Shown here: positions 42,817 to 64,000 of the stretch, piece after piece
Layout: each line of letters opens with the position of its first letter
Numbering within the stretch: the first letter of the stretch is position 1
DNA from: Candidatus Sericytochromatia bacterium
Lineage (GTDB): Bacteria > Cyanobacteriota > Sericytochromatia > S15B-MN24 > VGJW01
Assembly (NCBI GenBank): GCA_035285865.1
Contig: JAYKHS010000005.1
Location: 1-64,000, forward strand
Length of the DNA stretch: 64,000 nt
Reading direction: 5' to 3'
Made by a program: the position numbers and the translations under genes
Notes under the pieces: generated by a model
Told to the model about the DNA's origin: nothing
What the model saw: only the letters and a program-made list of their open reading frames with translations
Database searches by the model: none

Positions 42817-44214
42817 ATGGCCCTGATCAAGGGGAACAAGGTCAACCCCCGGGGTACGGTGGTCCTTCAGGGGGATCAGTTGCTGCCTGACGAGGCGGCC
42901 GATGAGTCCGGTTCCGTCCCAGCCCCACCCGCCACGCGAGGTTCCGCTCCGGTACCTGTCGCCGACCCTGCGGCGCCGTCTTCGGCGACTGCCCGTGAAC
43001 CTTCGGCTGTTCCGTACGTCGGACCGGAATCGGACACGGCAGACGACGCCCTTGTGGTCGAGACACCGGAAGAGCCCGCCGTTCCTCGGTACCCGGTGGA
43101 GCCGGACGCGACCGGACAGGGCGAGGCCGCCGAGAAGTCTGCTGCCGTGAAGGTCGGACTCGAGGCTGCCGTGGAGCGGCTCGAGGCCTGGGATGTCGCG
43201 CGCGATGCGTTGCGGGAGGAGGCCACGGCCCTCGCGGCTTCCTCGGAAGCGGACGCTCTGGCAGACATCGATCCTTCGGGCCTGTTCCGCGAGCGCCATG
43301 CCGAGCTGGCCTCGCACCTCGAGGAGGTCGTGGCCGCGCAGGCCATCGAGAGTGCGCTGGAGGCCGCGACGCCCGGTCTCGAGGCACTGGTCGAGTCCGA
43401 GGTGAGGGCGGCCCACGCTCGAGCCCGGGATATGGCCCGCTGGCGCACGATGGGCGAGGCTGAAGAGCAGATTGCGGCCCTGCTGGAGAATTACAGTTGG
43501 CCGGAGGAGCACGCCAAGGCCCTGCTCGGAGAGCGTGAGCAGGTTCTGGCTGCGGCTCGCCTCGAGGCCGAACGGATCCTGATGCACGCGCGCGCGGATG
43601 CCGAGGCCCTTATCGTCGAGGCGAGGACCTCGGCCATGCAGGACATGGCCACGCTCGAGTCCCAGCGTCAGGCACTCTTCGAAGAAACGCGCCAGCGCGC
43701 CTATGCCGAAGGCTATACCGAGGGTCGCGCGCAGGCTGACGAGGAGGGGGCACGGCTCCTCGAGGAGGCGACGGACAGCCTGAATCGCATTCGTCTGGCG
43801 TTGCCGCGTGCCGTCCGCGAGAGCCAGGACCAGTTGTTGCAATTGGCACTCGAGGTGGCCGAGCGTCTGGTCCATGCCGAGATTGCCGTCCGACCCGAGA
43901 TCGTATTGGACACGCTCGATGCCGCGCTGGCCCGCGTCACGGACATGGAGTCCGTCATCCTCCGGGTTCATCCCGAGGACCTGCCCACGGTGCAAGGGAA
44001 GGAGGAGCAGATCCGGGACCTGCTGGCCCAGGTCAAGAAGCTCGAGTTCCAGTCCTCCGTCAAGATCGCTCGGGGCGGAGTCTTCATCGAGACCGGGTCC
44101 GGCACCGTCGATGCGACCATCCGGACACAGATTTCGGTGCTCTCCGAAGTCTTCCGCAACACGCAGGCCGAGTTGTCCGAGATGATTGCGCCCGACCCTG
44201 AGGCTGGCTCGTGA
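42817..44214 (+). CDS. fliH: FliH/SctL-family export stator with a long N-terminal extension
   Basis: AYAEGYTEG, LRVHPEDL, GGVFIETGSGTVDATI; overlaps the fliI start. Confidence 0.85.
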   Translation: MALIKGNKVNPRGTVVLQGDQLLPDEAADESGSVPAPPATRGSAPVPVADPAAPSSATAREPSAVPYVGPESDTADDALVVETPEEPAVPRYPVEPDATGQGEAAEKSAAVKVGLEAAVERLEAWDVARDALREEATALAASSEADALADIDPSGLFRERHAELASHLEEVVAAQAIESALEAATPGLEALVESEVRAAHARARDMARWRTMGEAEEQIAALLENYSWPEEHAKALLGEREQVLAAARLEAERILMHARADAEALIVEARTSAMQDMATLESQRQALFEETRQRAYAEGYTEGRAQADEEGARLLEEATDSLNRIRLALPRAVRESQDQLLQLALEVAERLVHAEIAVRPEIVLDTLDAALARVTDMESVILRVHPEDLPTVQGKEEQIRDLLAQVKKLEFQSSVKIARGGVFIETGSGTVDATIRTQISVLSEVFRNTQAELSEMIAPDPEAGS

Positions 44215-45774: not shown

Positions 45775-47127
45775 ATGATTCGTTTTGCGAAGGCGACGAC
45801 GGCGGCGGCCCTTGCGACCAGTCTGGTGGGTTGTGGCACGAGCATGGGTCTGATGGGTGCCAACGGTGGCGTCCTCGGCGCCAAGGCCCGCAACCAGGCC
45901 GAGTGGACGTTCATGCTGCACCTGGGTGCGGCGAACAACCTCGAGCCCTTCGCCGGCATCAACCTGAACGAGATCGAAGCCGCCATCGACGACAAGAACG
46001 TCAACTTCATCGTCCTGTTCGACGGCCAGAAGAAGGGCGACTCCAAGATCTACCGGATGGTTCGCGACGCCAACGGTAACAACAAGACCTTGGTCTCGAG
46101 CGTAGTCGACGACAAGGGTGCCGTCATTCCGAGCGACACCAAGGAAATCGATTCCGGCGACGTCAAGACGGCTTCGAGGTTCACCCAGTGGGCCATCCAG
46201 AACTTCCCCGCCAAGAAGTATGGCTACCTGATGTGGGACCACGGCTCGGGCATCTTCACCCCGCAAGGTCAGCGCGTGAACCTCGGCCCCAGCGTCGATC
46301 GCTCGGCCGTCAAGCGTGCACTCGCCGGCAACGGCATGTCGGCCAACGGCATCTGCTGGGATGACGAGACCGGCAACCACATGACGACCGCCCAGTTCGG
46401 CGACGTCGTCGCCGCCGGTGCCCAGGCTGCCGGCAAGCCCCTCGACTTGGTCGGCTTCGATGCCTGCCTGATGGCGCACGTCGAGCTGGTCTACCAGATG
46501 AAGGGCAACGGCCTGAACATGGTCGCTTCCGAAGAGCTCGAGCCGGGCCTCGGTTGGGACTACATGGGCTGGATGAAGCGCCTCACCGCCAACCCCGCCG
46601 CTGATGGCGCCCTCGCTTCCAAGTACCTCGTCCAAGCCTACGGCGAGTCCTACAAGCCCGGTGGCAACCACGCCAAGGATGGTCGCGAGCAGGAGATCAC
46701 CCTGTCCGCCGCCAACTATGCGGCACTCAAGAACAATCTGGTTCCTGCGCTGAACAACCTCGCCAGCGAGATGGTCGCCGCGATGGGTTCCGAGAAGGCC
46801 GCCTTCCAGGCCGCTCGCAAGGCTACCCAGGAGTTCTACAACAGCGACTGCGGTGATGTCGGCAGTTTCCTCGGCCAGCTGGGTGCCAACACCCGGAGTG
46901 CTCGCGTCAAGCAGGCTGTCGCCAGCACCCAGCAGGCGCTCGCCAGCACCGTGATCGCCGAGGTGCACAACGGCAAGTGGACCACCGAGGGTACCGCCGG
47001 TGCCACCGGCCTGGTCATCTTCTTCCCCGAGACGAAGTACCAGTGGAAGGAAGCCTACAACAACCCTGCCCAGATCGCTTTCGCGGCCGAAGGCTGGCGG
47101 AACTTCCTCGTCAACTTCATCAAGTAG
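45775..47127 (+). CDS. Clostripain-family (C11) cysteine peptidase lipoprotein
   Basis: LVGC lipobox, EWTFML, WDHGSG (His), GFDACLM (Cys), ASEELEPG.GW. Confidence 0.92.
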   Translation: MIRFAKATTAAALATSLVGCGTSMGLMGANGGVLGAKARNQAEWTFMLHLGAANNLEPFAGINLNEIEAAIDDKNVNFIVLFDGQKKGDSKIYRMVRDANGNNKTLVSSVVDDKGAVIPSDTKEIDSGDVKTASRFTQWAIQNFPAKKYGYLMWDHGSGIFTPQGQRVNLGPSVDRSAVKRALAGNGMSANGICWDDETGNHMTTAQFGDVVAAGAQAAGKPLDLVGFDACLMAHVELVYQMKGNGLNMVASEELEPGLGWDYMGWMKRLTANPAADGALASKYLVQAYGESYKPGGNHAKDGREQEITLSAANYAALKNNLVPALNNLASEMVAAMGSEKAAFQAARKATQEFYNSDCGDVGSFLGQLGANTRSARVKQAVASTQQALASTVIAEVHNGKWTTEGTAGATGLVIFFPETKYQWKEAYNNPAQIAFAAEGWRNFLVNFIK

Positions 47128-47269: not shown

Positions 47270-48502
47270 TCAGGGATCCATCGGGTCCAGGACCTTGCGG
47301 ACCTGGGCAGCGATGACACTCTTCTGGACTTCTACGGCGGACAGGCGTTGCTTCGGGGTCGCATCGGCAAGGCTGGGGTGGTCCAGTGCCGCATTGCGGC
47401 TTTCGCGTTCGGCGACCATCTGCGCCAATTTGTCGACGACCTCGGGGTTGGCGCGGACCACGGTGCGGAAAGCCGGCTTGTCGACTTCCAGCAACTCGGC
47501 CCCGCTGCCCGGGGCAATCACGGCAGTAGCCCCACGGGGTTCCCCTTTGAGCAGGGGAATCTCGCCGAAGGCCTCGCCAGGGCCGAGCCTCGCGACAGGT
47601 TCCGAGTCCTCGGGCGAGCCGAGGTAAATGTCGATGTGACCCTTGGTCACGACGAACATGGCGTCGCCGGGTTCACCCTTCCGGAAGAGAACCTCTCCGG
47701 CCTCTGCCCGACGCGAACTCGTGTGCGCTGCGAGCAGACCGAGGCTGACGTCGTCCATCGGTTCCAGCAGTGGAACATGGTGCAGTACGTCGTCCACCTT
47801 CTGGACTTGCCGCAGGTCATAGAGACGATCTCTGGTCGCCTTCTGGATCTTGTCGGGCGTCTCGCGATCGGCGAGCACCACTCCGAACCAGCGCTCTGCT
47901 TGCTCGAATCGACCGAGGCGAAGGCCCAGTTCTCCAATCATGAACGGAATGGCGGCCTCGTCATCGTCCTCGTCACCACCTTGGCCGGGTTTGGCGCCAC
48001 CTTGGCTGAAGGCCAGTTCGAGCAACTCGCTGGCTCGCGCCAAGTGAGCCAGCTCGCGGCCCAGGTTGCCCGTCATCCGGCAGATCCAGCCCGCACGAAG
48101 TGCCATCGAGGCAAGCACTTTGGGCTGCGCCTTCCGTGCTTCGTAGGTGACTGCCGCGAGTTTGAAGGCAACCAGCGCAGCGAAAGGCGAACGGTCGGGC
48201 TGTCGAAAGTCCACCGTGCGCACCAGGCCGGAGTCCTTCAGGGCTTTGGCAACGGCATCGTGATGCCGATCCTCGAGGCTGGCGAAGTCCTTCTTGAGGG
48301 CGGCATAGCCACATCCCGGACAGACCCAGATTTGGTAATAAAGCGGATTAACCCCGGAGTAATGAGGGCAGTTGTCCGAATCGCGACGGACCAGCGAGTA
48401 GGTGCCGCTGCGGGGGGTGTGCAGCTTGAAGACCTGCAGGCATACAGGGCAGGAGACATCCCGTTGGGTCAGGGCTCCGAGCGAGCGTGTGGGTGTCGGC
48501 AT
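47270..48502 (-). CDS. DUF2225 zinc-ribbon/TPR protein fused to a C-terminal cNMP-binding domain
   Basis: CPVC...NPLYY.IWVCPGCGYA, LRAGWICR; LFRKGEPGD, FGEIPLL..EPRGATA. Confidence 0.85.
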   Translation of the reverse strand: MPTPTRSLGALTQRDVSCPVCLQVFKLHTPRSGTYSLVRRDSDNCPHYSGVNPLYYQIWVCPGCGYAALKKDFASLEDRHHDAVAKALKDSGLVRTVDFRQPDRSPFAALVAFKLAAVTYEARKAQPKVLASMALRAGWICRMTGNLGRELAHLARASELLELAFSQGGAKPGQGGDEDDDEAAIPFMIGELGLRLGRFEQAERWFGVVLADRETPDKIQKATRDRLYDLRQVQKVDDVLHHVPLLEPMDDVSLGLLAAHTSSRRAEAGEVLFRKGEPGDAMFVVTKGHIDIYLGSPEDSEPVARLGPGEAFGEIPLLKGEPRGATAVIAPGSGAELLEVDKPAFRTVVRANPEVVDKLAQMVAERESRNAALDHPSLADATPKQRLSAVEVQKSVIAAQVRKVLDPMDP

Positions 48503-53325: not shown

Positions 53326-54717
53326 TCAGGAGCGCTTGCCGAGGTAGCGTGCCGCCAGATCGGCAGGTACGCCGTTGGCGCGTGTCATGGTTCGGAAGAC
53401 ATCCACGGCCGGCGTCGGATGTCGGACCAAGGCCGGATCGTTGCCGTCAAGACGGTAGAGTCCGAACGTGGGTGCCCAGGTCCCGATCTCCCAGTTGTCC
53501 GACAGGGTCCAGTAGCAGTATCCGATCACCTTGGCCCCGTCGCGAACCGCCCGGGCCAGGGCGTGCACATGGTTGACGAGATAGGCCTCGCGACTCCACC
53601 CATCCGGTCGGGGTTGGCCCCGGTGAGTGGCCATGCCGTTCTCGGCAACGAGAAGGGGCAGGCCGTAGCGGCGGTGCAGCAGCATCGTGGCGTCGTACAT
53701 GCCTTCCGGGTGGACGGGCCACCGCCATTGGGTCGTGACCGTGCCCAGCTCATCGATGGCCGCCGCGTAGTAGTAGTCGAAGGCGATGTAGTCCATGGTG
53801 CGTCGCGGAGCGGCCTCGGGGTCGTCTTTCCAGGCCATCAGGGCATCCGCGAACTTGTCGGTGGGATCGTCGATGGGGACCATCCGGGTCGTGGCCTTGC
53901 CGCTGCGGCGCATGAACATGAAGAGGTTGGTCGAGACCCGCGCCGCGGCATCCTCGGCGTGCAGCGCGTCATAGGCGGCGGCGTGCGCCGCGGCCATGTG
54001 GTTGAGTGCGCGGGCGAAGGACACCGGATTCACCTGACCCGGTGGGATGATGCCCACGAGGTAGCCATTGAGGGCTTCCATGTTTGCTTCGTTGATCGTG
54101 AGCCAGATGATGCCCCGGCCCTTGAGTGCCTTGGCAACCACTCCGGCATAGCGCGCGAAGGCCTGCACCACGCCGGGACGTTCCCACCCCTTGCCACCGT
54201 CGCCATCGGGCAACAGGGACAGCGGCGGATCGTAGAAGGGCGCCCTCCCCTTGCGCGCGGTGTAGGGCAGGCTGGTCGAGTCGACCCACGCCGGATAGGA
54301 GAAGTGATACAGCGTGACGATCGGCTGCAGGCCTTTCTGCCGACAGTGGTCAAGAACCTTGGCATATCGCGCAAGGGCTGCATGGTCGAAGACGCCCGGA
54401 CGGGGCTCGATGCGCGACCACTCGAGGCTCATTCTGAATGCGTTGGCACCGGATGCAGCGGCCAGATTGACGTCTTCCTCGTAGCGCTCCCACGAGGCCG
54501 TGGCCCTTCCTGCCGGTTCCTTGGCGCGGCCGGCACGTTCGAAGTTCCGCCAGGCCGAACTCTCGAGGCCGTCCTCATTCTGGATGGCTGCCATGGCCAC
54601 GCCCCAGAGAAAGCCCTTCTGGAAGCCGATTTCCCCGGGCTGGGCGTCGGCAGGCCCCGCCGCCACGAGGCCCGTTGTCACGAGGCATGGCAGGATTCGG
54701 CGCAAGAATGATGGCAT
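53326..54717 (-). CDS. Glycoside hydrolase family 1 with a Sec signal
   Basis: FLWGVA, FRMSLEWSRIEP, TLYHF, TINEA, AENG, DNWE; ADA cleavage motif. Confidence 0.93.
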   Translation of the reverse strand: MPSFLRRILPCLVTTGLVAAGPADAQPGEIGFQKGFLWGVAMAAIQNEDGLESSAWRNFERAGRAKEPAGRATASWERYEEDVNLAAASGANAFRMSLEWSRIEPRPGVFDHAALARYAKVLDHCRQKGLQPIVTLYHFSYPAWVDSTSLPYTARKGRAPFYDPPLSLLPDGDGGKGWERPGVVQAFARYAGVVAKALKGRGIIWLTINEANMEALNGYLVGIIPPGQVNPVSFARALNHMAAAHAAAYDALHAEDAAARVSTNLFMFMRRSGKATTRMVPIDDPTDKFADALMAWKDDPEAAPRRTMDYIAFDYYYAAAIDELGTVTTQWRWPVHPEGMYDATMLLHRRYGLPLLVAENGMATHRGQPRPDGWSREAYLVNHVHALARAVRDGAKVIGYCYWTLSDNWEIGTWAPTFGLYRLDGNDPALVRHPTPAVDVFRTMTRANGVPADLAARYLGKRS

Positions 54718-56144
54718 CAGGGGCGTGTGGATGGGCGTGGGTGCTGCTCGAGCAAGGCGGGGGGCACGTCGTTGGCGGTAGCGATGGCCTTGTAGGCTTC
54801 CACAGCCGCGGTGGCTTTGCGTCTCAGGAGCGGATCCCGTGGATCCACTTCGTAGAGGCCGAACCTTGGACGATAGCTGCCCCATTCATAGTTGTCGAGC
54901 AGCGACCAGTGGATGTAGCCGAGGCAGGGGACGCCTTCAGCGATGGCCCGGCGAACTTGGTCGACGTGGTGGACGAGAAACGCTTCGCGCGTCCAGCCGT
55001 CGGCCCGCGGCTTGCCATCGTCGGTGGCCATGCCGTTTTCGGCGATGAGCAGCGGCAGGCCCGTCCGGCTTGCGTGGACCTTCATGGCGGACAGCAGGCC
55101 TTCCGGACGCAGGGCCCACTCCCATTGGCGGGCCATGCGCTGCACTTCGGTCCAGCGCCAGGCGTAGTAGTAGTCGAAGGCCATGTAGTCCAGTTTTCGG
55201 CTGCCCCTGCCCAGCACGGCCCCCCCCAACATCAGGTCCAGGCCTTGCCAGCTCAGCAACTGCCCCAGCATCTCCCGACTCGAATCTCCGGGGAAGACCG
55301 CAGCAGGATCCGACACGTGCGTCAGATCGAAGAAGTTCGTCGACACGAGGGCGTCGGGGTCCTCCTCGTGAATGGCGTCATAGGCCAGAACATGGCCGAG
55401 TGTCAGGTGGCGGGTGACGGCAGCCGCAGCACCGGGGTTCACCTTGCCGGGCGGGAAGACTCCGGTCAGGTAGCCGAGGATGACCTGGGTGTTCGGCTCG
55501 TTCAGGGTGATCCAGTAGCGGACATCCCTACCGAACTCCCGAGCGGCGAAGCGGGCGAATTGCTCGAAGGCCGCCGCGGTGTGCAGGTCCTCCCAGCCAG
55601 GGTAGCCCCCGGTGCCCTGCTTGTAGGTGTCCAGCCAGGCGGGGTAGGCGAAGTGGTGCAGCGTCACGACGGGTTCGAGACCCTTGGCCTTTGCCGCGCG
55701 GATCATCGCGCGGTAGCGCTCGATGGCTGCGCCGTCGAGGACGCCCGGCCGCGGTTCGATTCGGGCCCATTCGAGCGAGAAGCGAAATGCATTGAGACCC
55801 ATGCCCCGTGCCAGGTCGAAGTCTTCGGCGTACCGGTTCCACGAGTCCGTCGCGCGACCGGGGAGCGCCGTCGTCCGACCGGCCTCGGCCCAGGCCGCCC
55901 AGTTGGAGACCTTGTCGTGACCTTCTACCTGATGGCCCGCCGTCGCGACCCCCCAAAGGAAGCCTTGCGGGAAGCGACCCCGGGAGATGCCGGGCTGCTC
56001 CTGCTTCGGTTCACCCGGCTGGACAGGCTGTTGCTGCCCCGGCAGGAGCCCCGAGGGCCGCTGGGTACAGGCTTGGGACAGCAACAGGAAGCAAGCCTGT
56101 GCGGCCAGGGCCACCAGGCATCGCGTACGGAGCCGGTCAGTCAT
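54717..56144 (-). CDS. Glycoside hydrolase family 1, probable lipoprotein
   Basis: LSQAC, FLWGVATAGHQVEG, TLNEP, AENG, WSLLDNYEW; start approximate. Confidence 0.93.
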   Translation of the reverse strand: MTDRLRTRCLVALAAQACFLLLSQACTQRPSGLLPGQQQPVQPGEPKQEQPGISRGRFPQGFLWGVATAGHQVEGHDKVSNWAAWAEAGRTTALPGRATDSWNRYAEDFDLARGMGLNAFRFSLEWARIEPRPGVLDGAAIERYRAMIRAAKAKGLEPVVTLHHFAYPAWLDTYKQGTGGYPGWEDLHTAAAFEQFARFAAREFGRDVRYWITLNEPNTQVILGYLTGVFPPGKVNPGAAAAVTRHLTLGHVLAYDAIHEEDPDALVSTNFFDLTHVSDPAAVFPGDSSREMLGQLLSWQGLDLMLGGAVLGRGSRKLDYMAFDYYYAWRWTEVQRMARQWEWALRPEGLLSAMKVHASRTGLPLLIAENGMATDDGKPRADGWTREAFLVHHVDQVRRAIAEGVPCLGYIHWSLLDNYEWGSYRPRFGLYEVDPRDPLLRRKATAAVEAYKAIATANDVPPALLEQHPRPSTRP

Positions 56145-56191
56145 GGAGGGACTTTCCATGGGCATCGCCTGCTGAGTCATGCAGCTTGCGT

Positions 56192-57118
56192 TCAGGGCAG
56201 GACAGCCCGCATGTGGACCGTGCGCGTTGCCGTGGCCAGCCAGATTCCTCCCGTTCCATCCGGACACAGGGCTGTCGCCGGCTCCTCGAGTTCGAGCAGG
56301 ACGCGGCTTCCGGCGCCCCGCCACCCGAGCAGTGTCTTGCCGCGAGCGGCCAGGAGGGTGCCGTCGGAAAGCCAGGCGAGACCCGAGATCCGGGTTTCCC
56401 GCCAGAGGGCAATCGTGTCGCCTGGGCCGCTGACGACCACGCCGTGCACGTCGTCGGCAACGGCCACACGTTCGCCGGGGCCGGCTGCGACGGCGCCAGG
56501 CGCAGGCAGGGGCAGGCGAAGTGGCGAGGGGGCGTCCGGCCAGATTCCCTTGAGACCCGACCCCAGCACCGTATCGATACGTCCTTCCGAGTCCACCCGG
56601 CGTACGCGCCGGAACCCGGGATCCGCGATCCACGTTTCCCGGCCGGCCACGGCAAGGGCTGCAGGGCGCGAGAGTTGTGCGCCGACGGCCCGAGCGCGGT
56701 CCCCGATCGGCTGGAAGTCCGTGCCTGAACCGGCGAAGGCCGTGGCCTCCCCCGTGCTCCCGGGGGCCACGCGCCATACACGGTGGTGTTCGGGATCGGC
56801 GACAAGCATGGCGCCGTCGGTCGTCAAGGCGAGTCCGCTCGGCTTGCCCACGCGGCCAGGCAGGCTCCACGGTCGCGTGGCCGGTTCCCGGACATCCTGC
56901 CTCAGATCGGCCAGCCATAGACCTTTCGCGTCATCCAGGCCAACGACCCGGGAGGTGTCCGCAGCCAGCAGGGAGGCTCCTGCAGCCACGCTGTGCGCCG
57001 CGATCAGCCCGGGCCACGCCGGTTCGCCCGAGCGGCATCCGGCGAGCACCAGCAGCGTCGACGTCACGACGGACGCTTGCAGACCGACGGTGCACTTGGC
57101 GGCGCGGAAAGATGTCAT
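56192..57118 (-). CDS. NHL-repeat beta-propeller lipoprotein
   Basis: LAGC lipobox; PSGLAL..DG..LVAD..HHRV, P..LAV...WIAD..RRVRRV. Confidence 0.8.
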   Translation of the reverse strand: MTSFRAAKCTVGLQASVVTSTLLVLAGCRSGEPAWPGLIAAHSVAAGASLLAADTSRVVGLDDAKGLWLADLRQDVREPATRPWSLPGRVGKPSGLALTTDGAMLVADPEHHRVWRVAPGSTGEATAFAGSGTDFQPIGDRARAVGAQLSRPAALAVAGRETWIADPGFRRVRRVDSEGRIDTVLGSGLKGIWPDAPSPLRLPLPAPGAVAAGPGERVAVADDVHGVVVSGPGDTIALWRETRISGLAWLSDGTLLAARGKTLLGWRGAGSRVLLELEEPATALCPDGTGGIWLATATRTVHMRAVLP

Positions 57119-57222
57119 GCGCCCGATCCTAACAGGCTCCTCCCGCATGGTGGCCCTTCACGCCCATCACGGGCTATATTGGACAAGACACTTGGTCTTT
57201 TCGGGGGAGGTCTTACGGTCGC

Positions 57223-58257
57223 ATGGAGCCCGTCACGCTTGGCGTCGACCTCGGTCGCAGCGAGATCCGCCTCTTCGACGGAGAGACGACGCTTCGTCAT
57301 CCGGCACTTGCCGGCGGTCCGGTGCGCTCCATGGCGCGGGGTTCTGCACGGATCCTCGAGGAACAACCCGAAGATCACATGACGGTGCGCATCGGGCGCC
57401 TGACCCACACGCTCGGGCGCATGGCCCTTGAGCAGCCGATGGTTTTCCCCGCCTCGGGTGTCGATCTCTTCGAGGACGGCCTTGCATGGGTGCATCTGCT
57501 CGGGGCCCTGGGGCTGTTGGCCCGTCACCACCGGACACAGGGCACGTTCCGGGTCCGTCTCGGACTTGCCGTGCCGCAACTGAACGCGCGTCGCGACGAA
57601 GCCTTGCACGCGGCCATCGACACGTGGCGTGGCGTTCATCGGTATGAGTTCTGCGGGCAGCCCATGGCGGTGGCCATCGAGCAGATCGACGTATTGCCAC
57701 GCACGCTCGCTTCGGTCTACGCCGCCACCATGGACGGCGTGATCGATCCCGGTCCTGACACCACGCTGGGCGTCATCGATGCAGGCCACGTCGCCACGGA
57801 CTGGATGGTGGCACGCCTGCCGCGCGAGCTGCCTCGCTTCGGTGGTTTCACGCAGGCGGTCGCAGGCATTCGCCTCGTCGAGGCCGTCGAGGAGGCCCTG
57901 CTGGATGCCGGCATCGTGCGCATCAATCCGCTGGCTGCCCTCGGGGCCGCCCTCGAGGGAGCCTATGTCGATGGCCGGGTCCGCGTCGATCTGCCCGAAG
58001 GCCTCCTTGACGAGATGCTCGAGCTGATGGCGCAGCAGTTGGCCTTGACCCTGCGCCAGGCTTGGCGTGACCTTTCGGTGGATCAGGTGTTGTTGACGGG
58101 CGGCCTCGGTGCTCGCCTCGCGCCCTGGCTCGAGGGTCACAAGGCCTTGCCCGATGTGCTGCTTGCGGCCGAGCCCCGCCATGGCGTCGCCCAAGGGGCT
58201 TACCACTTCGAGTTCCGGCAGCCTGGTTCGGAATCGGCTGCTCCGGTCGAGGCCTGA
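57223..58257 (+). CDS. ParM/StbA-family actin-like protein
   Basis: GVDLG, GLAVP, GVIDAG..TD, LLTGG, AQG actin-fold motifs; GGGAGG upstream. Confidence 0.8.
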   Translation: MEPVTLGVDLGRSEIRLFDGETTLRHPALAGGPVRSMARGSARILEEQPEDHMTVRIGRLTHTLGRMALEQPMVFPASGVDLFEDGLAWVHLLGALGLLARHHRTQGTFRVRLGLAVPQLNARRDEALHAAIDTWRGVHRYEFCGQPMAVAIEQIDVLPRTLASVYAATMDGVIDPGPDTTLGVIDAGHVATDWMVARLPRELPRFGGFTQAVAGIRLVEAVEEALLDAGIVRINPLAALGAALEGAYVDGRVRVDLPEGLLDEMLELMAQQLALTLRQAWRDLSVDQVLLTGGLGARLAPWLEGHKALPDVLLAAEPRHGVAQGAYHFEFRQPGSESAAPVEA

Positions 58258-58263
58258 TCCCGC

Positions 58264-59412
58264 GTGTTCCGGGACCTGCAGCGCCAGCTGGGGGAAATCC
58301 TGGGGCGAACGCCCGACCCGCTGGGTGCCATCACGCCCGAGCAGCTCAAGGTCGTGCTCCGGAACATCGAGACGCGTTACCACGACTTGCGCGAGGAGAA
58401 CGGCCGATTGCGGCGTCAGGCCGAGGAATCGCGGGCCGTGGCCGAGCGGCTCGAGACCGAGCGTGATGTCGCTCGCCGCGAGGCCGAGCGGGGTCCCGAG
58501 GCGATGTTGTCCCGCATGGCCGAGATGCAGCGGGAACTGGTCGCCGCAAGGGACGGTCAGGAACAGCTGGCGCTCGAGGTTGCCCAGTTCCGCCAGTTGC
58601 TGGTCGATGCCGATGCACTGAAGGATCAGGCGCTTGCCGATGCGCGCGGCATGGAGGATCGGGTCCGGGCTCTCGAGGCGGAGCGGGACCGGCTCCTCGT
58701 GGCGCTGGAACGAGCCGAGGAGGCGCGCGACGAATCACAGGGGGCGAGCGTGGCGATGCGCGAGGACCTCGAAGGAGCGCGGGAGGAGACCGTTCGTCTT
58801 GGCGTACGCGTCAGAGACCTCGAGGCTGCGCTCGAGGCTTGCGAGGAGGCCGTGGCGACAGAGCGGGAGGGTCGCGACGCAGCCCTTCGCCTGTTGGCTG
58901 CCGATCCCGAGAAAGAGGCACTCAAGGAACAGGTGCGCGAGCTTGAAGCGCGGGTGCTGTCGCTCGAGTCCGAGCAGATCGAACGAGAGACGGCACTGGC
59001 CGAGGCACTGAGCGCACGGGACGAGGTTCGTGAGGCCGAGGACCCGGGTGCGAGCCGGGAGCTCGAGGAGCGGCTGGCCGTGGCCGAGGGGGAACGGGAT
59101 GCCTTGGGCCGCATCGTCGAGACCTTGCGTGGCGAGCAGGAGCGTCTGACGGCCGAGATGCGTCGCCTGGGCGAGGACCATGGAGACATCCAGGCGCGGA
59201 TGTCCGACCTGTCCTTGCGGACGCGCCGCGTGCCCGATCCGTCTGTTCCGCCGGGCGACGTGGGTGAACTGCGTCGGCAGATGGAGGATTTGGGGCACAA
59301 ACTGGATAGGATGGTTCAGCAGCGTGGCCCCGAGCGTGGCCGTCAGCGGGCTTCGCGCCCTGAGGCGGGCGCGGATCCCGCACGCAAATTGGACTGGTTG
59401 ATGGGGCGCTGA
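58264..59412 (+). CDS. Long coiled-coil protein
   Basis: Near-continuous E/R/A/L heptads over ~300 aa; short amphipathic ends (KLDWLMGR). Confidence 0.8.
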
Positions 59413-59414
59413 GC

Positions 59415-59960
59415 GTGCGTCCCGAGGGGCTCGACCACGTCCTTGGTCGCATTCGCGATCTGGAGGATCGACTGGGGCTGGGACAGCGGCCCGAGGCCCG
59501 TGCAGGTGCGACCTTGGCCCCGTCCGGCAGGGCTCCGGCCCCTGGCACCTTGCCTCCGATGCAGGGTGCGGGTGCCTTCCGGGATGCGATTGCTGCGGCG
59601 GCACGCCACCAGGGCGTGGACCCGCGGTTGCTCGAAGCCGTGGTCGAGGCCGAGTCCGGGGGCAATCCCTCGGCCGTCTCCTCCAAGGGTGCGATGGGCC
59701 TCATGCAGCTCATGCCGAGTACTGCCCGGGCGCTGGGAGTCTCCCGTCCCCTCGATCCCGTCCAGAATCTGGAGGGTGGGGCTCGCTATCTCGCGGAACA
59801 ACTGCGCAACTTCGGGTCCGTCGAGCAGGCGCTAGCTGCCTACAACGCCGGCCCTCAGGCCGTGCGTCGCCACGGGGGCGTTCCGCCCTACCCCGAGACG
59901 AACAACTATGTGACGAAGATCATGGAGCGGATGCGCGCAACAGAGCCTGATTCCCGCTAA
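59415..59960 (+). CDS. Lytic transglycosylase (SLT domain)
   Basis: [40 protein letters not shown]. Confidence 0.95.
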
Positions 59961-59985
59961 AGTCCCCCTGCAGGTCTGCCGAACA
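59958..59985 (+). promoter_or_regulatory. Sigma28-like promoter for flgF
   Basis: TAAA-N16-GCCGAACA. Confidence 0.7.
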
Positions 59986-60021
59986 TAAAACCGTTCGCAC
60001 GACTTATGTCAGGGAGGTCCG

Positions 60022-60786
60022 ATGATCCGGGGCATCTACACGGCAGCATCCGCGATGCTGGTCCAGATGGGGCTCCAGGACGTCGTCGGCAACAACCTGG
60101 CCAACGCCAACACCACCGCCTACAAGCGGGACGAGGTGTCCTTCAAGGCGCGGATCGACAAGACGATGTACCGCGTGGGCATGGCTCCCGGCGGTCCGGT
60201 TGATGGGCGCAGCCTCATCGGCAAGCTCTCGACAGGCTCGCAGGTGGCCGAGATCCGGCCGAACTTGGCGCAAGGCGAGCTGCGGCCCACCGACAATCCG
60301 CTGGATCTGGGTATCCGGGGCAAGGGCTTCTTTCTCGTCGAGAACGACAACGGGGAGCAGTTCCTGACCAGGGCCGGAAACTTCCTGGTGGATCGGGAGC
60401 GCAATCTCGTGGACGCTACGGGAGCCCGCGTGGTGGGTGACGGAGGGCCGCTCGTGATGCCCGAGCGCGCGACGGTGCTCATCAGTCAGGAAGGCGTCAT
60501 CACCGCAGGTTCCAAGGTCGTCGGCAGGCTTGCCATCCGCGAGGTGGCGCGCCCTGCCGAGCAGCTCGAGAAGGTGGGCGTCGGGCGTTTTCGTCTGAAA
60601 GCCGGCGAGATGGTCGCCAGTCGCTCCGAAGTGCATCAGGGTTACCTGGAGGCGTCGGACGTCTCGCCGACGCATGAGATGGTCAAGATGGTCACGGCGA
60701 TGCGGTCCTACGAGAGTTCGTCCAAGGCGATGCAGACGCACGACGAACTGCTGGGCAAGGCCGTCAACGAGTTGGGCAGGGTCTAG
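60022..60786 (+). CDS. flgF: Flagellar basal-body rod protein FlgF (FlhO-like)
   Basis: NNLANANT..YK, TDNPLDLGIRG.GFF, TRAGNF, QGYLEAS. Confidence 0.88.
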   Translation: MIRGIYTAASAMLVQMGLQDVVGNNLANANTTAYKRDEVSFKARIDKTMYRVGMAPGGPVDGRSLIGKLSTGSQVAEIRPNLAQGELRPTDNPLDLGIRGKGFFLVENDNGEQFLTRAGNFLVDRERNLVDATGARVVGDGGPLVMPERATVLISQEGVITAGSKVVGRLAIREVARPAEQLEKVGVGRFRLKAGEMVASRSEVHQGYLEASDVSPTHEMVKMVTAMRSYESSSKAMQTHDELLGKAVNELGRV

Positions 60787-60814
60787 GACCCGAAGGTCAG
60801 GGAGAACCACCGCC

Positions 60815-61597
60815 ATGATGGGAGCACTCTACAGCGCGGCCTCGGGGATGAAGGCCCAGCAGCTGAATATCGACGTCATCTCCAACAATCTCGCGAACGT
60901 CAACACCGGGGGCTTCAAGAAGTCCCGGGCCGAGTTCCAGGACCTCCTCTACCGCACCATCGCCGAGGCCGGCGTCCCGGTCAGCGGGGGCTCCAACACG
61001 CCGGTCGGCACCCAGGTGGGTACCGGTACCCGCTCCATCGCCATCTCCAAGGTCTTCAGCCAGGGCGACTTCAACCAGACGGACAATCCCCTCGATCTGA
61101 CGATCGAGAACGACGGCTTCTTCGTCGTGCAGATGCCCGATGGCACCCAGGCCTTCACGCGTGATGGTGCCCTCAAGATCGATCGCACGGGCCAGATCGT
61201 GACGGCAGAGGGTTATCCCCTCGTCCCGAACATCACCATCCCCCCTGGCGTGGTGCGCCCCAATGTCAGCCCGGAAGGCATCATCACGGCGACCATCGCG
61301 GGCGTGAACACGACGCTCGGCCAGCTTCAACTGGCGCGCTTCCTGAACCCTTCGGGCCTCAGTGCCGTGGGCCACAACCTCTACCGCGTGACCAACGCGT
61401 CCGGTGATCCCATTCAGGGCCTGCCCGGCATCGATGGCATGGGCAGCGTGATGCAGGGTTACCTCGAGGGCTCGAACGTCCGTGTCGTCGACGAGATGGT
61501 CAACCTGATCGTCGCCCAGCGCGCTTACGAGGCCAACAGCAAGTCGATCCAGACCTCGGACGACATGCTCAGCCAGGCCAACACCCTGAAGCGGTAG
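60815..61597 (+). CDS. flgG: Flagellar basal-body rod protein FlgG
   Basis: AASGM.AQQ..IDVISNNLANVNT.GFK, FQDLLY, TRDG, LIVAQRAYEANSK. Confidence 0.96.
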   Translation: MMGALYSAASGMKAQQLNIDVISNNLANVNTGGFKKSRAEFQDLLYRTIAEAGVPVSGGSNTPVGTQVGTGTRSIAISKVFSQGDFNQTDNPLDLTIENDGFFVVQMPDGTQAFTRDGALKIDRTGQIVTAEGYPLVPNITIPPGVVRPNVSPEGIITATIAGVNTTLGQLQLARFLNPSGLSAVGHNLYRVTNASGDPIQGLPGIDGMGSVMQGYLEGSNVRVVDEMVNLIVAQRAYEANSKSIQTSDDMLSQANTLKR

Positions 61598-61610: not shown

Positions 61611-61958
61611 ATGAACTTGTCGATCGGACCCGCTGCCGGCCGTCTCGCCCCCGCCCCCGCCCTGGGGCCCGGTGCGGGCGGTGGGGTGGGTCGCGGTCGT
61701 GCAAGGGCCAAGGATGATCGGGGTCGCCTGGTTCAGGCGGCGCAGGAGTTCGAAGCCATCCTGGTCCAGCACATGCTGGAGACCATGCGGAAGGCCAAGC
61801 TGGCCGAGGATCCGCTCGACAAGGGCAACGCGGCGTCCATCATCCATTCGTTGCAGGACGAGGCCATGGCGCGTTCCATCTCGAAGGGCAAAGGCCTCGG
61901 GCTGGCCGATGCCATCGTGCGTGACCTCGATCTCCGGATGGCGAAGGCGCGGCACTAA
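61611..61958 (+). CDS. flgJ: Single-domain rod-binding protein FlgJ
   Basis: AAQEFEAILVQHMLETMR, GLGLAD. Confidence 0.85.
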   Translation: MNLSIGPAAGRLAPAPALGPGAGGGVGRGRARAKDDRGRLVQAAQEFEAILVQHMLETMRKAKLAEDPLDKGNAASIIHSLQDEAMARSISKGKGLGLADAIVRDLDLRMAKARH

Positions 61959-61983: not shown

Positions 61984-62023
61984 TGTTCATGGGATGGAGT
62001 TCCATCCCGAAGAGGAACGGAAG

Positions 62024-62335
62024 ATGAGGATCGACCCACGGCTGCTTTCGCAGCACAACGATGTGGCGGCGACCCAGCGCAAGCGGGAAGCCGACGCCCT
62101 GAAGCCTTCGGCACCGGTTTCCGGTCCGGCGGCCCAGGTCTCGCTGTCCGGTCCCGGTGAGGCGCTTCAGCGATTCGGCGCGGTGCTTGGCAAGTCCGAG
62201 GTCAACCGTTCCGAGCTGGTGGCGCGCCTCAAGGCGGAGGTCGAAGCTGGAACCTACCAGCCGAGCGGGGAATCCATCGCCAAGGCGATCCTCGATCGCG
62301 ACGCCGACGCCGTCGACGTCGACGCCCTCCGTTAG
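62024..62335 (+). CDS. flgM: Anti-sigma28 factor FlgM
   Basis: MRID, VSLS, R.ELVARLK..VEAGTY....IA..I; lies upstream of flgN-flgK. Confidence 0.88.
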   Translation: MRIDPRLLSQHNDVAATQRKREADALKPSAPVSGPAAQVSLSGPGEALQRFGAVLGKSEVNRSELVARLKAEVEAGTYQPSGESIAKAILDRDADAVDVDALR

Positions 62336-62344
62336 GGGTCGGCC

Positions 62345-62851
62345 ATGGAAGCCCTCGAAGTCTTTGTCTCTTGCCTGGAGCGGGAGGTCAAGGCTTACGA
62401 GGGTTTCTTGGCGCGCCTGCCGCTGAAGCTGGCGCTGATGCGCAAGAATCAGGTGGGTCCGCTCGCCGCTCTGGTGGCGAGAGAGGAAGACGACAGGCGG
62501 ACCCTGGTGGCCATCGAGGTCGAACGTCGTGGCGCTGCGCGTCCGGTCGCGGCTGCACTGGGCTTGTCCGAGGCAGCGTCCTTGAGAGAGATGGCGGATG
62601 CGCTTGGCGGCGAAGCGCGTGAGCGGGTCCTCGCGCTGCGTGAGCGGCTCGCCGAGGTGCTGGGGCGTTTGCGTGCCGGCCAGGAAACTGCGTCGCTGTT
62701 GGCTCAAGCCAGCCTCGATTACGTCGGATTCTCCCTCGGGCTTTTCAGCCGAGCCCTCAACCCCGAGGTCCAACTGGCCGACATGACTTATGGGGGAATG
62801 CCCGGCGGCGTCGGGCGCGCAGCCTCCAGCCTGCTCGACCGGACGGCCTGA
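62345..62851 (+). CDS. flgN: Export chaperone FlgN
   Basis: Helical ~168-aa protein ending TYG...LLDRTA, between flgM and flgK. Confidence 0.82.
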   Translation: MEALEVFVSCLEREVKAYEGFLARLPLKLALMRKNQVGPLAALVAREEDDRRTLVAIEVERRGAARPVAAALGLSEAASLREMADALGGEARERVLALRERLAEVLGRLRAGQETASLLAQASLDYVGFSLGLFSRALNPEVQLADMTYGGMPGGVGRAASSLLDRTA

Positions 62852-62882
62852 GCAGGCGGGGGCCCCGAGTGGGGAGGTCCGG

Positions 62883-64000
62883 ATGTCCGCAGGCGATCTG
62901 ACGCGGCTCGGCATCAATGCGGCGACCAGGGGGTTGTTCGCGGCCCAGGCCGCCCTGACCACTGCAGGTCATGACATCACGAATGCCAACACCGAGGGGT
63001 TCAGCCGCCAGCGGGTCGAGCAGAGTTCGCTGCACCAGCAATTCCCTTTGGGCACGAATTCGGATCGGGTATTCTCGTCGATCGGCAATGGCGTCGAGGT
63101 CACGCGCGTGACGCGGCTTCGCGAAGGCTTCCTCGACGATCGGTTCAGAGCCATCAACCTCTCGTATTCGGAGCAGGCAGCCGTCAACAACGCCATTCGC
63201 GAGATCGAGGGCGTCTTCAACGAGCCATCGGATTCGGGCCTGAACGCGACGCTCGCCAGCTTCTTCGATTCGTGGCACGAGCTCTCGACGCACCCGACCG
63301 AGTCGTCTGCACGGGCGGCAGTCCGTGAGGCCGGCAAGACCCTGGCCCGCGCGCTCAACGAGACGGCGGCAGGTCTGTCTGCCGTGCGTCGGCACCTGGA
63401 CTCCCAGGTGGCGGCCGCGACCGATGAAATCAACGCCCACGTGCGCGAAATCGCGGCACTGAACGCCCAGATCGTGGCGTCTCAGGGTTCGGGGCTGTCC
63501 CCCAACGACCTGCTCGATGCGCGGGATCTTGCGTTGGATCGTCTGTCGGGGTTGGTCAAGACGAACCTGTCCACCCATTCGGATGGTTCGATCTGGGTCT
63601 ACTGCTACGGCAAGGGGCTTGTGACCGGCATTCAGGCCAATGAACTCAAGACACTGCCCGGCACCGACATGGGCTTGTCCAACATCGCGTACAAGGGCGA
63701 GCTGCTGACGCCTGAGGTTCTCGGGGGGCGCCTCAAGGGTCTGCTCGAGGTCCGTGATCAGGTCATCGGTCGGTCTCTGGTACCGGATGGGTTCAACCTG
63801 CCCAATACGCCCAATGGCTTGGCCTATCAGCTGGATCAGGTCGCCTCCCAGCTTGCCGAGGCCGTCAACGCGCTGCATGCCGCCGGTACCAACCTGGCGG
63901 GAACACCGTCGATCGAGTTCTTCGCCGTAGATGCCGCCCGAGTGACGGAAGGCGCGAGCCTGAGCCGTACGACCATCACGGCGCATTCGATCGCGGTCAA
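62883..64000 (+). CDS. flgK: Hook-associated protein FlgK, 3'-truncated (absent from the ORF track)
   Basis: GGGGAGG RBS; GLFAAQAAL.TAGHDITNANTEGFSRQRV, IGNGV, FNEPSDSGL, PNDLLDARD. Confidence 0.93.
   Translation, partial: MSAGDLTRLGINAATRGLFAAQAALTTAGHDITNANTEGFSRQRVEQSSLHQQFPLGTNSDRVFSSIGNGVEVTRVTRLREGFLDDRFRAINLSYSEQAAVNNAIREIEGVFNEPSDSGLNATLASFFDSWHELSTHPTESSARAAVREAGKTLARALNETAAGLSAVRRHLDSQVAAATDEINAHVREIAALNAQIVASQGSGLSPNDLLDARDLALDRLSGLVKTNLSTHSDGSIWVYCYGKGLVTGIQANELKTLPGTDMGLSNIAYKGELLTPEVLGGRLKGLLEVRDQVIGRSLVPDGFNLPNTPNGLAYQLDQVASQLAEAVNALHAAGTNLAGTPSIEFFAVDAARVTEGASLSRTTITAHSIAV

Follow-up and report, generated by a model that had tools for sequence, protein, structure and literature searches.

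Why does the gene for a ParM-type actin stand directly in front of the flagellar rod genes of a bacterial chromosome? ParM-type actins are textbook plasmid movers. The locus in question lies in a 64,000-nucleotide stretch of Candidatus Sericytochromatia bacterium (contig JAYKHS010000005.1, positions 1 to 64,000; G+C content about 67%), the whole of which we call the window. Three plus-strand open reading frames (ORFs), separated by only 6 nt and 2 nt, occupy positions 57223-59960. They encode an actin-like protein (ALP; 57223..58257, 344 aa), a coiled-coil protein (CC; 58264..59412, 382 aa) and a lytic transglycosylase (SLT; 59415..59960, 181 aa). The SLT stop codon is followed after 61 nt by the start of flgF, a rod gene (60022..60786, +). 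A preliminary description had taken these three genes, whose boundaries we recovered exactly, for a cytoskeletal module linked to the flagellum. Our best explanation as a whole is a trio, specific to one order, that aids flagellum placement or assembly. We give this reading a probability of roughly 0.5.

Conservation of the module across one order

Strong ALP matches were found in 24 of the 26 other genomes of the window's order (7/7 in family f1, 1/1 in f2, 8/8 in f3 and 8/10 in f4), always as a single copy; one f1 match, at the edge of a contig, covers only 54 aa. The two misses are explained by contig ends. In genome G112 the contig begins at SLT, and in G124 it ends inside ALP, with CC and the ALP tail present. 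None of the 20 genomes of other families or orders in the class had ALP, and the rest of the 401 genomes of the phylum gave only matches of 27-50 bits, mostly from one cyanobacterial genus.

A search of 1.84 billion representative proteins returned 453 matches at E≤1e-3 and 7 at E≤1e-30. The seven closest representatives score at least 293 bits and the next full-length relatives at most 93 bits. The closest proteins carry the source labels of Candidatus Sericytochromatia or Tanganyikabacteria metagenome-assembled genomes (MAGs). One relative, P0010, bears the label "Bacteroidota MAG", which is probably a binning label. Among named proteins outside the family, the nearest, from Desulfitibacter and Symbiobacterium, are annotated as "ParM/StbA family". 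In a quick maximum-likelihood tree of 80 rows, drawn with midpoint rooting and built from sequences other than named ParM, Alp or MamK references, the ALP clade, on a stem of 1.62, has an SH-aLRT support of 100, and within it the branching order matches the genome families. ALP forms a distinct new clade of ParM-type actins.

The linkage to flg genes that the preliminary description had reported in the window was conserved. A flank of 3 kb or more was available in 20 genomes, and in 19 of these flgF follows ALP on the same strand at a distance of 0.9-8 kb. The seven metagenome loci with flank all have flgF downstream in the same order, although some of them duplicate the genomes; the metagenome scan recovered no context for the most basal family members, P0006, P0010 and P0012. 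CC directly follows ALP in all 22 loci with downstream sequence, and SLT stands between CC and flgF in 16 of the 19 flgF-linked genomes. In families f3 and f4, the SLT stop codon overlaps the flgF start. The one exception is genome G022 (f2), where ALP, CC and SLT remain together and are followed by a glycosyltransferase-like gene; its flgF is on another contig, behind a gene for a Xer-type recombinase. In other orders, unrelated genes precede flgF. The attachment of this new ParM clade, with a new type of partner, to the flagellar cluster is, as judged from gene order, conserved across the order.

The genome that contains the window (G000) amounts to 2.8 Mb in 32 contigs, at 83% completeness. 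An assembly artefact can be ruled out as the source of the arrangement, because contigs of DNA from two further studies span ALP-CC-SLT-flgF. ALP is coding on the plus strand, with homologues down to 40% identity and a dN/dS of 0.105; an antisense ORF that overlaps ALP (57115-58383) has no family match. All three genes are under purifying selection, with dN/dS values of 0.08-0.21 that are similar to those of flgF. Compared with two congeners, the values were 0.105 for ALP, 0.16-0.21 for CC, 0.08-0.15 for SLT and 0.10-0.18 for flgF. The trio is best explained as a chromosomal module, vertically inherited and specific to one order of Sericytochromatia.

The three proteins and their cluster

That ALP is ParM-like, as had been proposed, was confirmed by profile matches, a structure model and structure comparison. 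A 5-sequence profile searched against the Protein Data Bank (PDB) matched pCBH ParM (6.6e-11), CorM (1.1e-7) and Dh-cParM1 (5.8e-7). AlphaFold2 (AF2) with a 71-sequence alignment (A2) modelled ALP with a pLDDT of 90.4 and a pTM of 0.89; this model supersedes one made from 5 sequences, which had a pLDDT of 59 and an unresolved N-terminus. The top Foldseek match of the model is CorM (9rmi; E 1e-18, TM 0.76, 18% identity). It is followed by pCBH ParM, Ta0583, pSK41 ParM, Dh-cParM1, Bt ParM, Alp12 and R1 ParM, all of which rank above MreB, Alp7A and MamK. E-values to ParM-type chains range from 1e-18 to 1e-12. The ALP of the window itself matched no Pfam family, MreB_Mbl included. PF17989 (ALP_N) was matched by 68 of the 71 members of alignment A2, and orthologues at 47-49% identity match both ALP_N and MreB-like_C. 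A true mreB is located elsewhere in the genome (G000:C2:5631-6614, 508.6 bits), so ALP is not the cell's MreB.

Of the 26 family members, 25-26 retain the nucleotide-binding Asp and Gly residues D9, G11, D186, G188, G293 and G294. The sequence of the phosphate-1 loop is DLGRSE.R in 26/26 members and D.G[YF]G..K in distant relatives. Residue 160, which we take from ParM and actin to be the catalytic Gln/Glu site, is Gln in 20 of the 26 members, Arg in 5, which form the window's subclade, and Thr in 1. ALP has a ParM-type actin fold with phosphate-1, phosphate-2 and adenosine motifs. Orthologues in genera g8 and g14 (L036:3463-4974; L023-L025) are longer: those of g8 have a C-terminal extension of ~160 aa and a total length of 504 aa, and those of g14 measure 374-401 aa.

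The second gene, which had been called a coiled coil, gave weak SMC-like coiled-coil matches. Beyond these, CC matched no Pfam or NCBIfam family. Its orthologues range from 248 to 681 aa in genomes, with 822 aa in one metagenome locus. They consist of an N-terminal domain of ~55 aa (58264..58428 in the window; core ITPEQLK...IE.KY), a variable coiled coil, a Pro/Ala-rich stretch and a short C-terminal motif (59380..59409; alignments A5 and A6). The N-domain has a mean column identity of 52% in alignment A3 (28 sequences) and occurs once in the genome. The C-terminal motif is KLDWLMG in f1 and RRExLxxLIG-like in f3 and f4. With the N-domain, ESM Atlas returned only matches below 0.9, in generic coiled-coil rows, and a word-based search with CC residues 1-75 found close relatives only.

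Two candidate assignments for CC were rejected. Calmodulin matches to the N-domain were weak (best whole-sequence E 1.6e-4, with no single stretch significant), and we do not call it an EF-hand because the metal-binding positions are not kept in the alignment. An amphipathic helix was considered for the C-terminal motif and dropped, as in 21 of 22 sequences the helical hydrophobic moment of the motif did not exceed that of shuffles (5% level); the remaining low shuffle count (1/22) fell elsewhere in the CC tail. Complex prediction of ALP with the last 59 CC residues (alignments A2 and A6) gave scores of 0.45, 0.27 and 0.24; the median of 0.27 falls below the mark of 0.32, which speaks neither for nor against binding. 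In f3 (L031-L035, L038), an extra small gene of 74-148 aa lies between ALP and CC; its product is paralogous to the CC N-domain and has no C-terminal motif.

The assignment of gene 3 to the lytic transglycosylases was confirmed by an SLT domain at residues 58-155 (PF01464, 2e-29). The translation contains ES, GLMQ and AYNAG, the motifs of the SLT family, and the protein is a family-1 lytic transglycosylase. Its best NCBIfam match was BB0259_flg_lyt at 4.2e-24, which is under the cut-off of that family and covers the SLT domain only. Family members measure 160-223 aa and share a short N-terminal helix, which is conserved, and a Pro/Ala linker. In the 17 sequences compared, hydrophobic N-termini, Sec signal peptides and lipoboxes are all absent, and the maximum Kyte-Doolittle mean over 15 residues is at most 1.35. 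A longer N-terminus is excluded because there is an in-frame stop upstream.

The FlgJ of the window (61611..61958, +; 115 aa; PF10135, 4e-11) has the rod-binding domain and no hydrolase domain, and this is likewise the case in L001, L003 and L004. A single-domain FlgJ works with a separate SLT enzyme in Borrelia and Rhodobacter, according to the available text of PMC8517470. The natural reading is that the window has the same two-protein arrangement. SLT would then open the peptidoglycan for the rod, the task that SltF and BB0259 perform alongside a single-domain FlgJ, and we consider a role at the flagellar rod likely by this analogy. As SLT has no Sec signal, it is probably exported by the flagellar gate or on FlgJ: it would exit through the export gate, or would ride on FlgJ. 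SLT thus looks ordinary in function and unusual in delivery. This bears on the open question of how wall-cutting enzymes reach the rod tip when FlgJ has no hydrolase domain.

Downstream of flgF, on the same strand, are flgG (distal rod; 60815..61597; TIGR02488, 340.9 bits, above cut-off), flgJ, flgM (61994..62335), flgN (62345..62851) and flgK (62790..64000, continuing past the window end); the last three were assigned by family scan. Past the window, the same contig carries flgL, fliW, csrA, flhF and a MinD/ParA-type flhG. The cluster therefore has the order ALP-CC-SLT-flgF-flgG-flgJ-flgM-flgN-flgK-flgL-fliW-csrA-flhF-flhG and spans ~10.5 kb. No flgA, flgH or flgI was found between ALP and flhG. 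A second flgG-like gene above the family cut-off lies at G000:C26:111702-112457, and most genomes of the class likewise have two. A RodZ-type HTH_25 gene stands just past flhG on the opposite strand (L055:5874-6647 (-), about G000:C5:68573-69346).

Upstream, at a distance of 5-15 kb from the cluster, are fliH, fliI and a FapA gene. FliH (42817-44214) is unusually long at 465 aa, with an ATP-synthase-B-like coiled region before the FliH domain. A clostripain-type C11 peptidase and a DUF2225 protein that includes a cyclic-nucleotide-binding domain are encoded at 45775-47127 and 47270-48502 (-), in the interval from fliI to the FapA gene. Next to ALP, on its upstream side, is an NHL-repeat gene in divergent orientation (56192-57148 (-)). 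NHL-repeat genes recur near the module: they are divergent from ALP in f1 and f4, lie inside an insertion of 5.5 kb in one f3 genome, and follow flhG in G000 (the window gene, L023:7585-8553, L031:6261-8597 and, for G000, L055:6751-7947). Two tandem glycoside hydrolase family 1 ORFs (53326-54885 (-) and 54717-56918 (-)), the second of which overlaps the NHL ORF in another frame, may be a frameshifted or fused gene.

Weighing a flagellar role

In the mechanism that we propose, ALP would form nucleotide-dependent filaments, and CC would couple these to a flagellar or polar target through its N-domain and C-terminal motif. The module would thereby help to place or assemble a flagellum of the FlhF/FlhG type. 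From the gene order, we put the chances that the ALP-CC pair is linked to flagella at about even, and the cytoskeletal part of the module is plausible. A more specific version is tentative and stands below even odds: the ParM-derived filament would be a dedicated flagellar cytoskeleton, tethered by CC, that marks or stabilises the assembly site with FlhF/FlhG and couples SLT to the export gate. If this were true, flagellar biogenesis would gain its first known actin-like polymer, and the cyanobacterial phylum a second, independent repurposing of a ParMR system. Should the link prove functional, a cytomotive filament would join the few factors known to place or assemble flagella, and it would offer a second natural experiment on the repurposing of a segregation machine. 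Our literature search turned up no report of an actin-like protein associated with a flagellar cluster in this way; most subscription journals lay outside the search.

FlhF has the same distribution as ALP. It was above cut-off in 27/27 genomes of the order and in 0/20 outside, and in G000 its gene lies in the same cluster, beyond the window (G000:C5:66312-67331). Flagellar placement may differ between the order with FlhF and the other orders without it.

Between SLT and flgF lies a sigma-28-like motif, TAAAG-N16-GCCGAACA (59958..59985, +). It is the sole match in the 64 kb, where 0.05 are expected, and it is conserved in the genus. The motif also precedes flgF in f2, f5 and f7, other orders included, where no trio stands upstream. 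These observations fit a history in which sigma-28 drove the flgF operon of an ancestor and the trio was later inserted ahead of it. The SLT-flgF junction would then have turned into a gene overlap in f3 and f4, and the promoter would have persisted in the window's genus. In L021, L022, L028, L029 and L036, the motif is also found before flgM. Upstream of the actin gene, a leader block of 14 nt with a TATATT box (57172..57185, +) is conserved in the genus, as judged from an alignment of the window with L019 and L020, and is a possible promoter element. A scan of 56900-60100 for sigma-70 consensus promoters and terminators gave no match. In metatranscriptome X19, contigs covered only flgF-flgG (one of 331 nt aligned without mismatch at 60676-61004) and none covered the trio; this absence proves nothing, and the library may hold DNA.

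Several points weigh against a flagellar role for the trio. The case is one of synteny and gene neighbourhood only. flgG is present in 47/47 genomes of the class, which thus offers no non-flagellated relative for comparison. The 20 genomes without ALP are among them, so ALP was added in one order and does not belong to the flagellar core; since those other orders are flagellated without it, the module is dispensable for flagella as such. The shared distribution of ALP and FlhF counts as one evolutionary event and not as 27, because both reflect a single split between orders. The sigma-28-like motif lies between the trio and flgF in the window's genus, so their co-transcription is not assured, and the trio, which has a conserved leader block of its own, may be transcribed separately. 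In genus g14, three genomes have no SLT at the locus, with other SLT genes elsewhere, and in one f3 locus 5.5 kb of unrelated NHL-type genes separate CC from SLT. Known flagellar SLT enzymes carry a Sec signal (PMC8517470, available text), whereas the SLT of the window has none. In addition, because Arg replaces Gln at the presumed catalytic position 160, nucleotide hydrolysis may differ or be lost in the window's subclade. The flagella-linked cytoskeletal module of the preliminary description thus stands in part: synteny and the lack of grouping with plasmid ParMs speak for it, and its restriction to one order and the promoter in front of flgF speak against it.

Alternative readings and known systems

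Of the other readings, the one that fares best is that ALP and CC form a general membrane or cortex cytoskeleton, acting in cell shape or at the pole, that merely sits beside flagellar genes. CC would then be the functional counterpart of CorR, an adaptor that has an amphipathic helix at its N-terminus and a CorM-binding peptide at its C-terminus. In Anabaena sp. PCC 7120, CorMR is a chromosomal ParMR repurposed as a cortical cytoskeleton, in which a C-terminal helix of CorR binds CorM (bioRxiv 10.1101/2025.06.27.661541, available text); the preprint establishes that such repurposing can occur. Cyanobacterial CorR-like genes beside CorM-like genes encode a coiled coil, a Pro-rich linker and a conserved C-terminal peptide, an architecture that resembles that of CC, and CorM is the best structural match of ALP. 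The quick tree also joins the ALP clade with the cyanobacterial CorM-like proteins and two unnamed proteins at an SH-aLRT of 93. However, this value is under the mark of 95 and the stems are long, so the join is a hint only. Identity to CorM is 18%, and hhalign comparison of the CC N-domain and C-terminus with CorR-like proteins gave probabilities of 2% and 0.1%. The C-terminal motif of CC, moreover, is not measurably amphipathic. This reading also leaves unexplained the tight, order-wide coupling to SLT and flgF, down to overlapping stop and start codons. We regard it as unlikely.

A little less likely still is that ALP is a non-filamentous ATPase with an actin fold and acts as an assembly factor or scaffold for the export apparatus or the transglycosylase, in the manner of PilM or FtsA. 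The remodelled phosphate-1 loop, DLGRSE.R in every family member, and the change of Gln160 to Arg in the window's subclade would suit such a protein. PilN, the partner of PilM, has a conserved N-terminal domain, and so does CC. Yet the best matches are all filament-forming ParM types, with neither PilM nor FtsA among the 46 Foldseek matches listed down to rank 50, and most family members retain Gln160.

The preliminary description had found no ParR-like gene, no parC-like array and no plasmid or phage gene, and our scans agreed with it on each point. CC has no ribbon-helix-helix, and its comparison with CorR-like proteins was negative. Between 56900 and 60100, no repeat family exceeded two copies, and the short two-copy matches lay within coding sequence only; the 74-nt leader contained no parC repeats. 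A Pfam scan of 43 ORFs of at least 113 aa, which covered 30-64 kb of the window and not its first 30 kb, revealed no plasmid or phage gene. With tblastn, ALP matched none of 72,556 plasmids or 50,697 phages; no ParR was found either, and ALP falls outside the plasmid ParMs. That the locus is a ParMR-type cassette for DNA segregation, relic or active, which arrived next to the flagellar genes, as suggested by the ParM fold, by a partner gene immediately downstream in the position of ParR and by the ParM/StbA annotation of the nearest named relatives outside the family, is therefore very improbable, given the lack of a ribbon-helix-helix partner, a repeat array or a plasmid or phage relative, the 122-kb contig with its housekeeping genes (gltX and nadC beside the flagellar genes), the single ALP per genome with a gene tree that tracks the genome families, and the purifying selection. 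CC is a new kind of partner, in the place of ParR but not ParR.

The order-specific flagellar trio can thus be set beside several known systems. With plasmid ParMRC (R1, pSK41, pCBH and B. thuringiensis ParM) and with Ta0583, ALP shares the ParM-type subdomain layout, and with ParMRC the locus also shares the order of actin and then adaptor. It differs from ParMRC in having no ParR, parC, plasmid location or plasmid or phage match. The genome-encoded cParMs (Dh-cParM1, Cb-cParM) are also chromosomal ParM homologues, and Dh-cParM1 is at Foldseek rank 9 for ALP. Chromosomal cParMs were recently shown to polymerise, and their cassettes keep ribbon-helix-helix cParRs, in one case with cparC repeats; the word stem "flagell" does not occur in the available text of that report (PMC12270681). 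CC of the window, in contrast, has no ribbon-helix-helix.

For SLT, the closest parallels are SltF of Rhodobacter and BB0259 of Borrelia, which like the window combine an SLT domain with a FlgJ limited to rod binding. They differ in that SLT of the window has no Sec signal, whereas BB0259 is a protein of 717 aa with a signal peptide (PMC8517470, available text).

The preliminary description had also drawn a parallel to Bacillus. There, an actin-superfamily gene, mbl, presumably likewise stands upstream of rod genes, flhO-flhP, in B. subtilis, an adjacency that the available text of PMC5540618 did not show. Only a loose analogy survives, because ALP resembles ParM rather than MreB, and a separate MreB is encoded in the genome. 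Mbl belongs to the MreB-family cell-wall cytoskeleton, and MreB ranks lower in the Foldseek order of ALP.

The nearest system overall is CorMR. Both are chromosomal, have a ParM fold, occur in the same phylum and have no DNA segregation context, and in both the partner lies directly downstream and combines a coiled coil, a Pro-rich linker and a short C-terminal peptide. They differ in that ALP forms a separate clade with its own phosphate-loop signature, and in that CC, at 248-822 aa, is two to four times longer than the CorR-like proteins of 157-218 aa and has an N-domain that hhalign finds unrelated. The module of the window, furthermore, lies in the flagellar cluster of unicellular-type, non-photosynthetic lineages. 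Our verdict is that it is a variation on the chromosomal ParM theme, comparable to CorMR.

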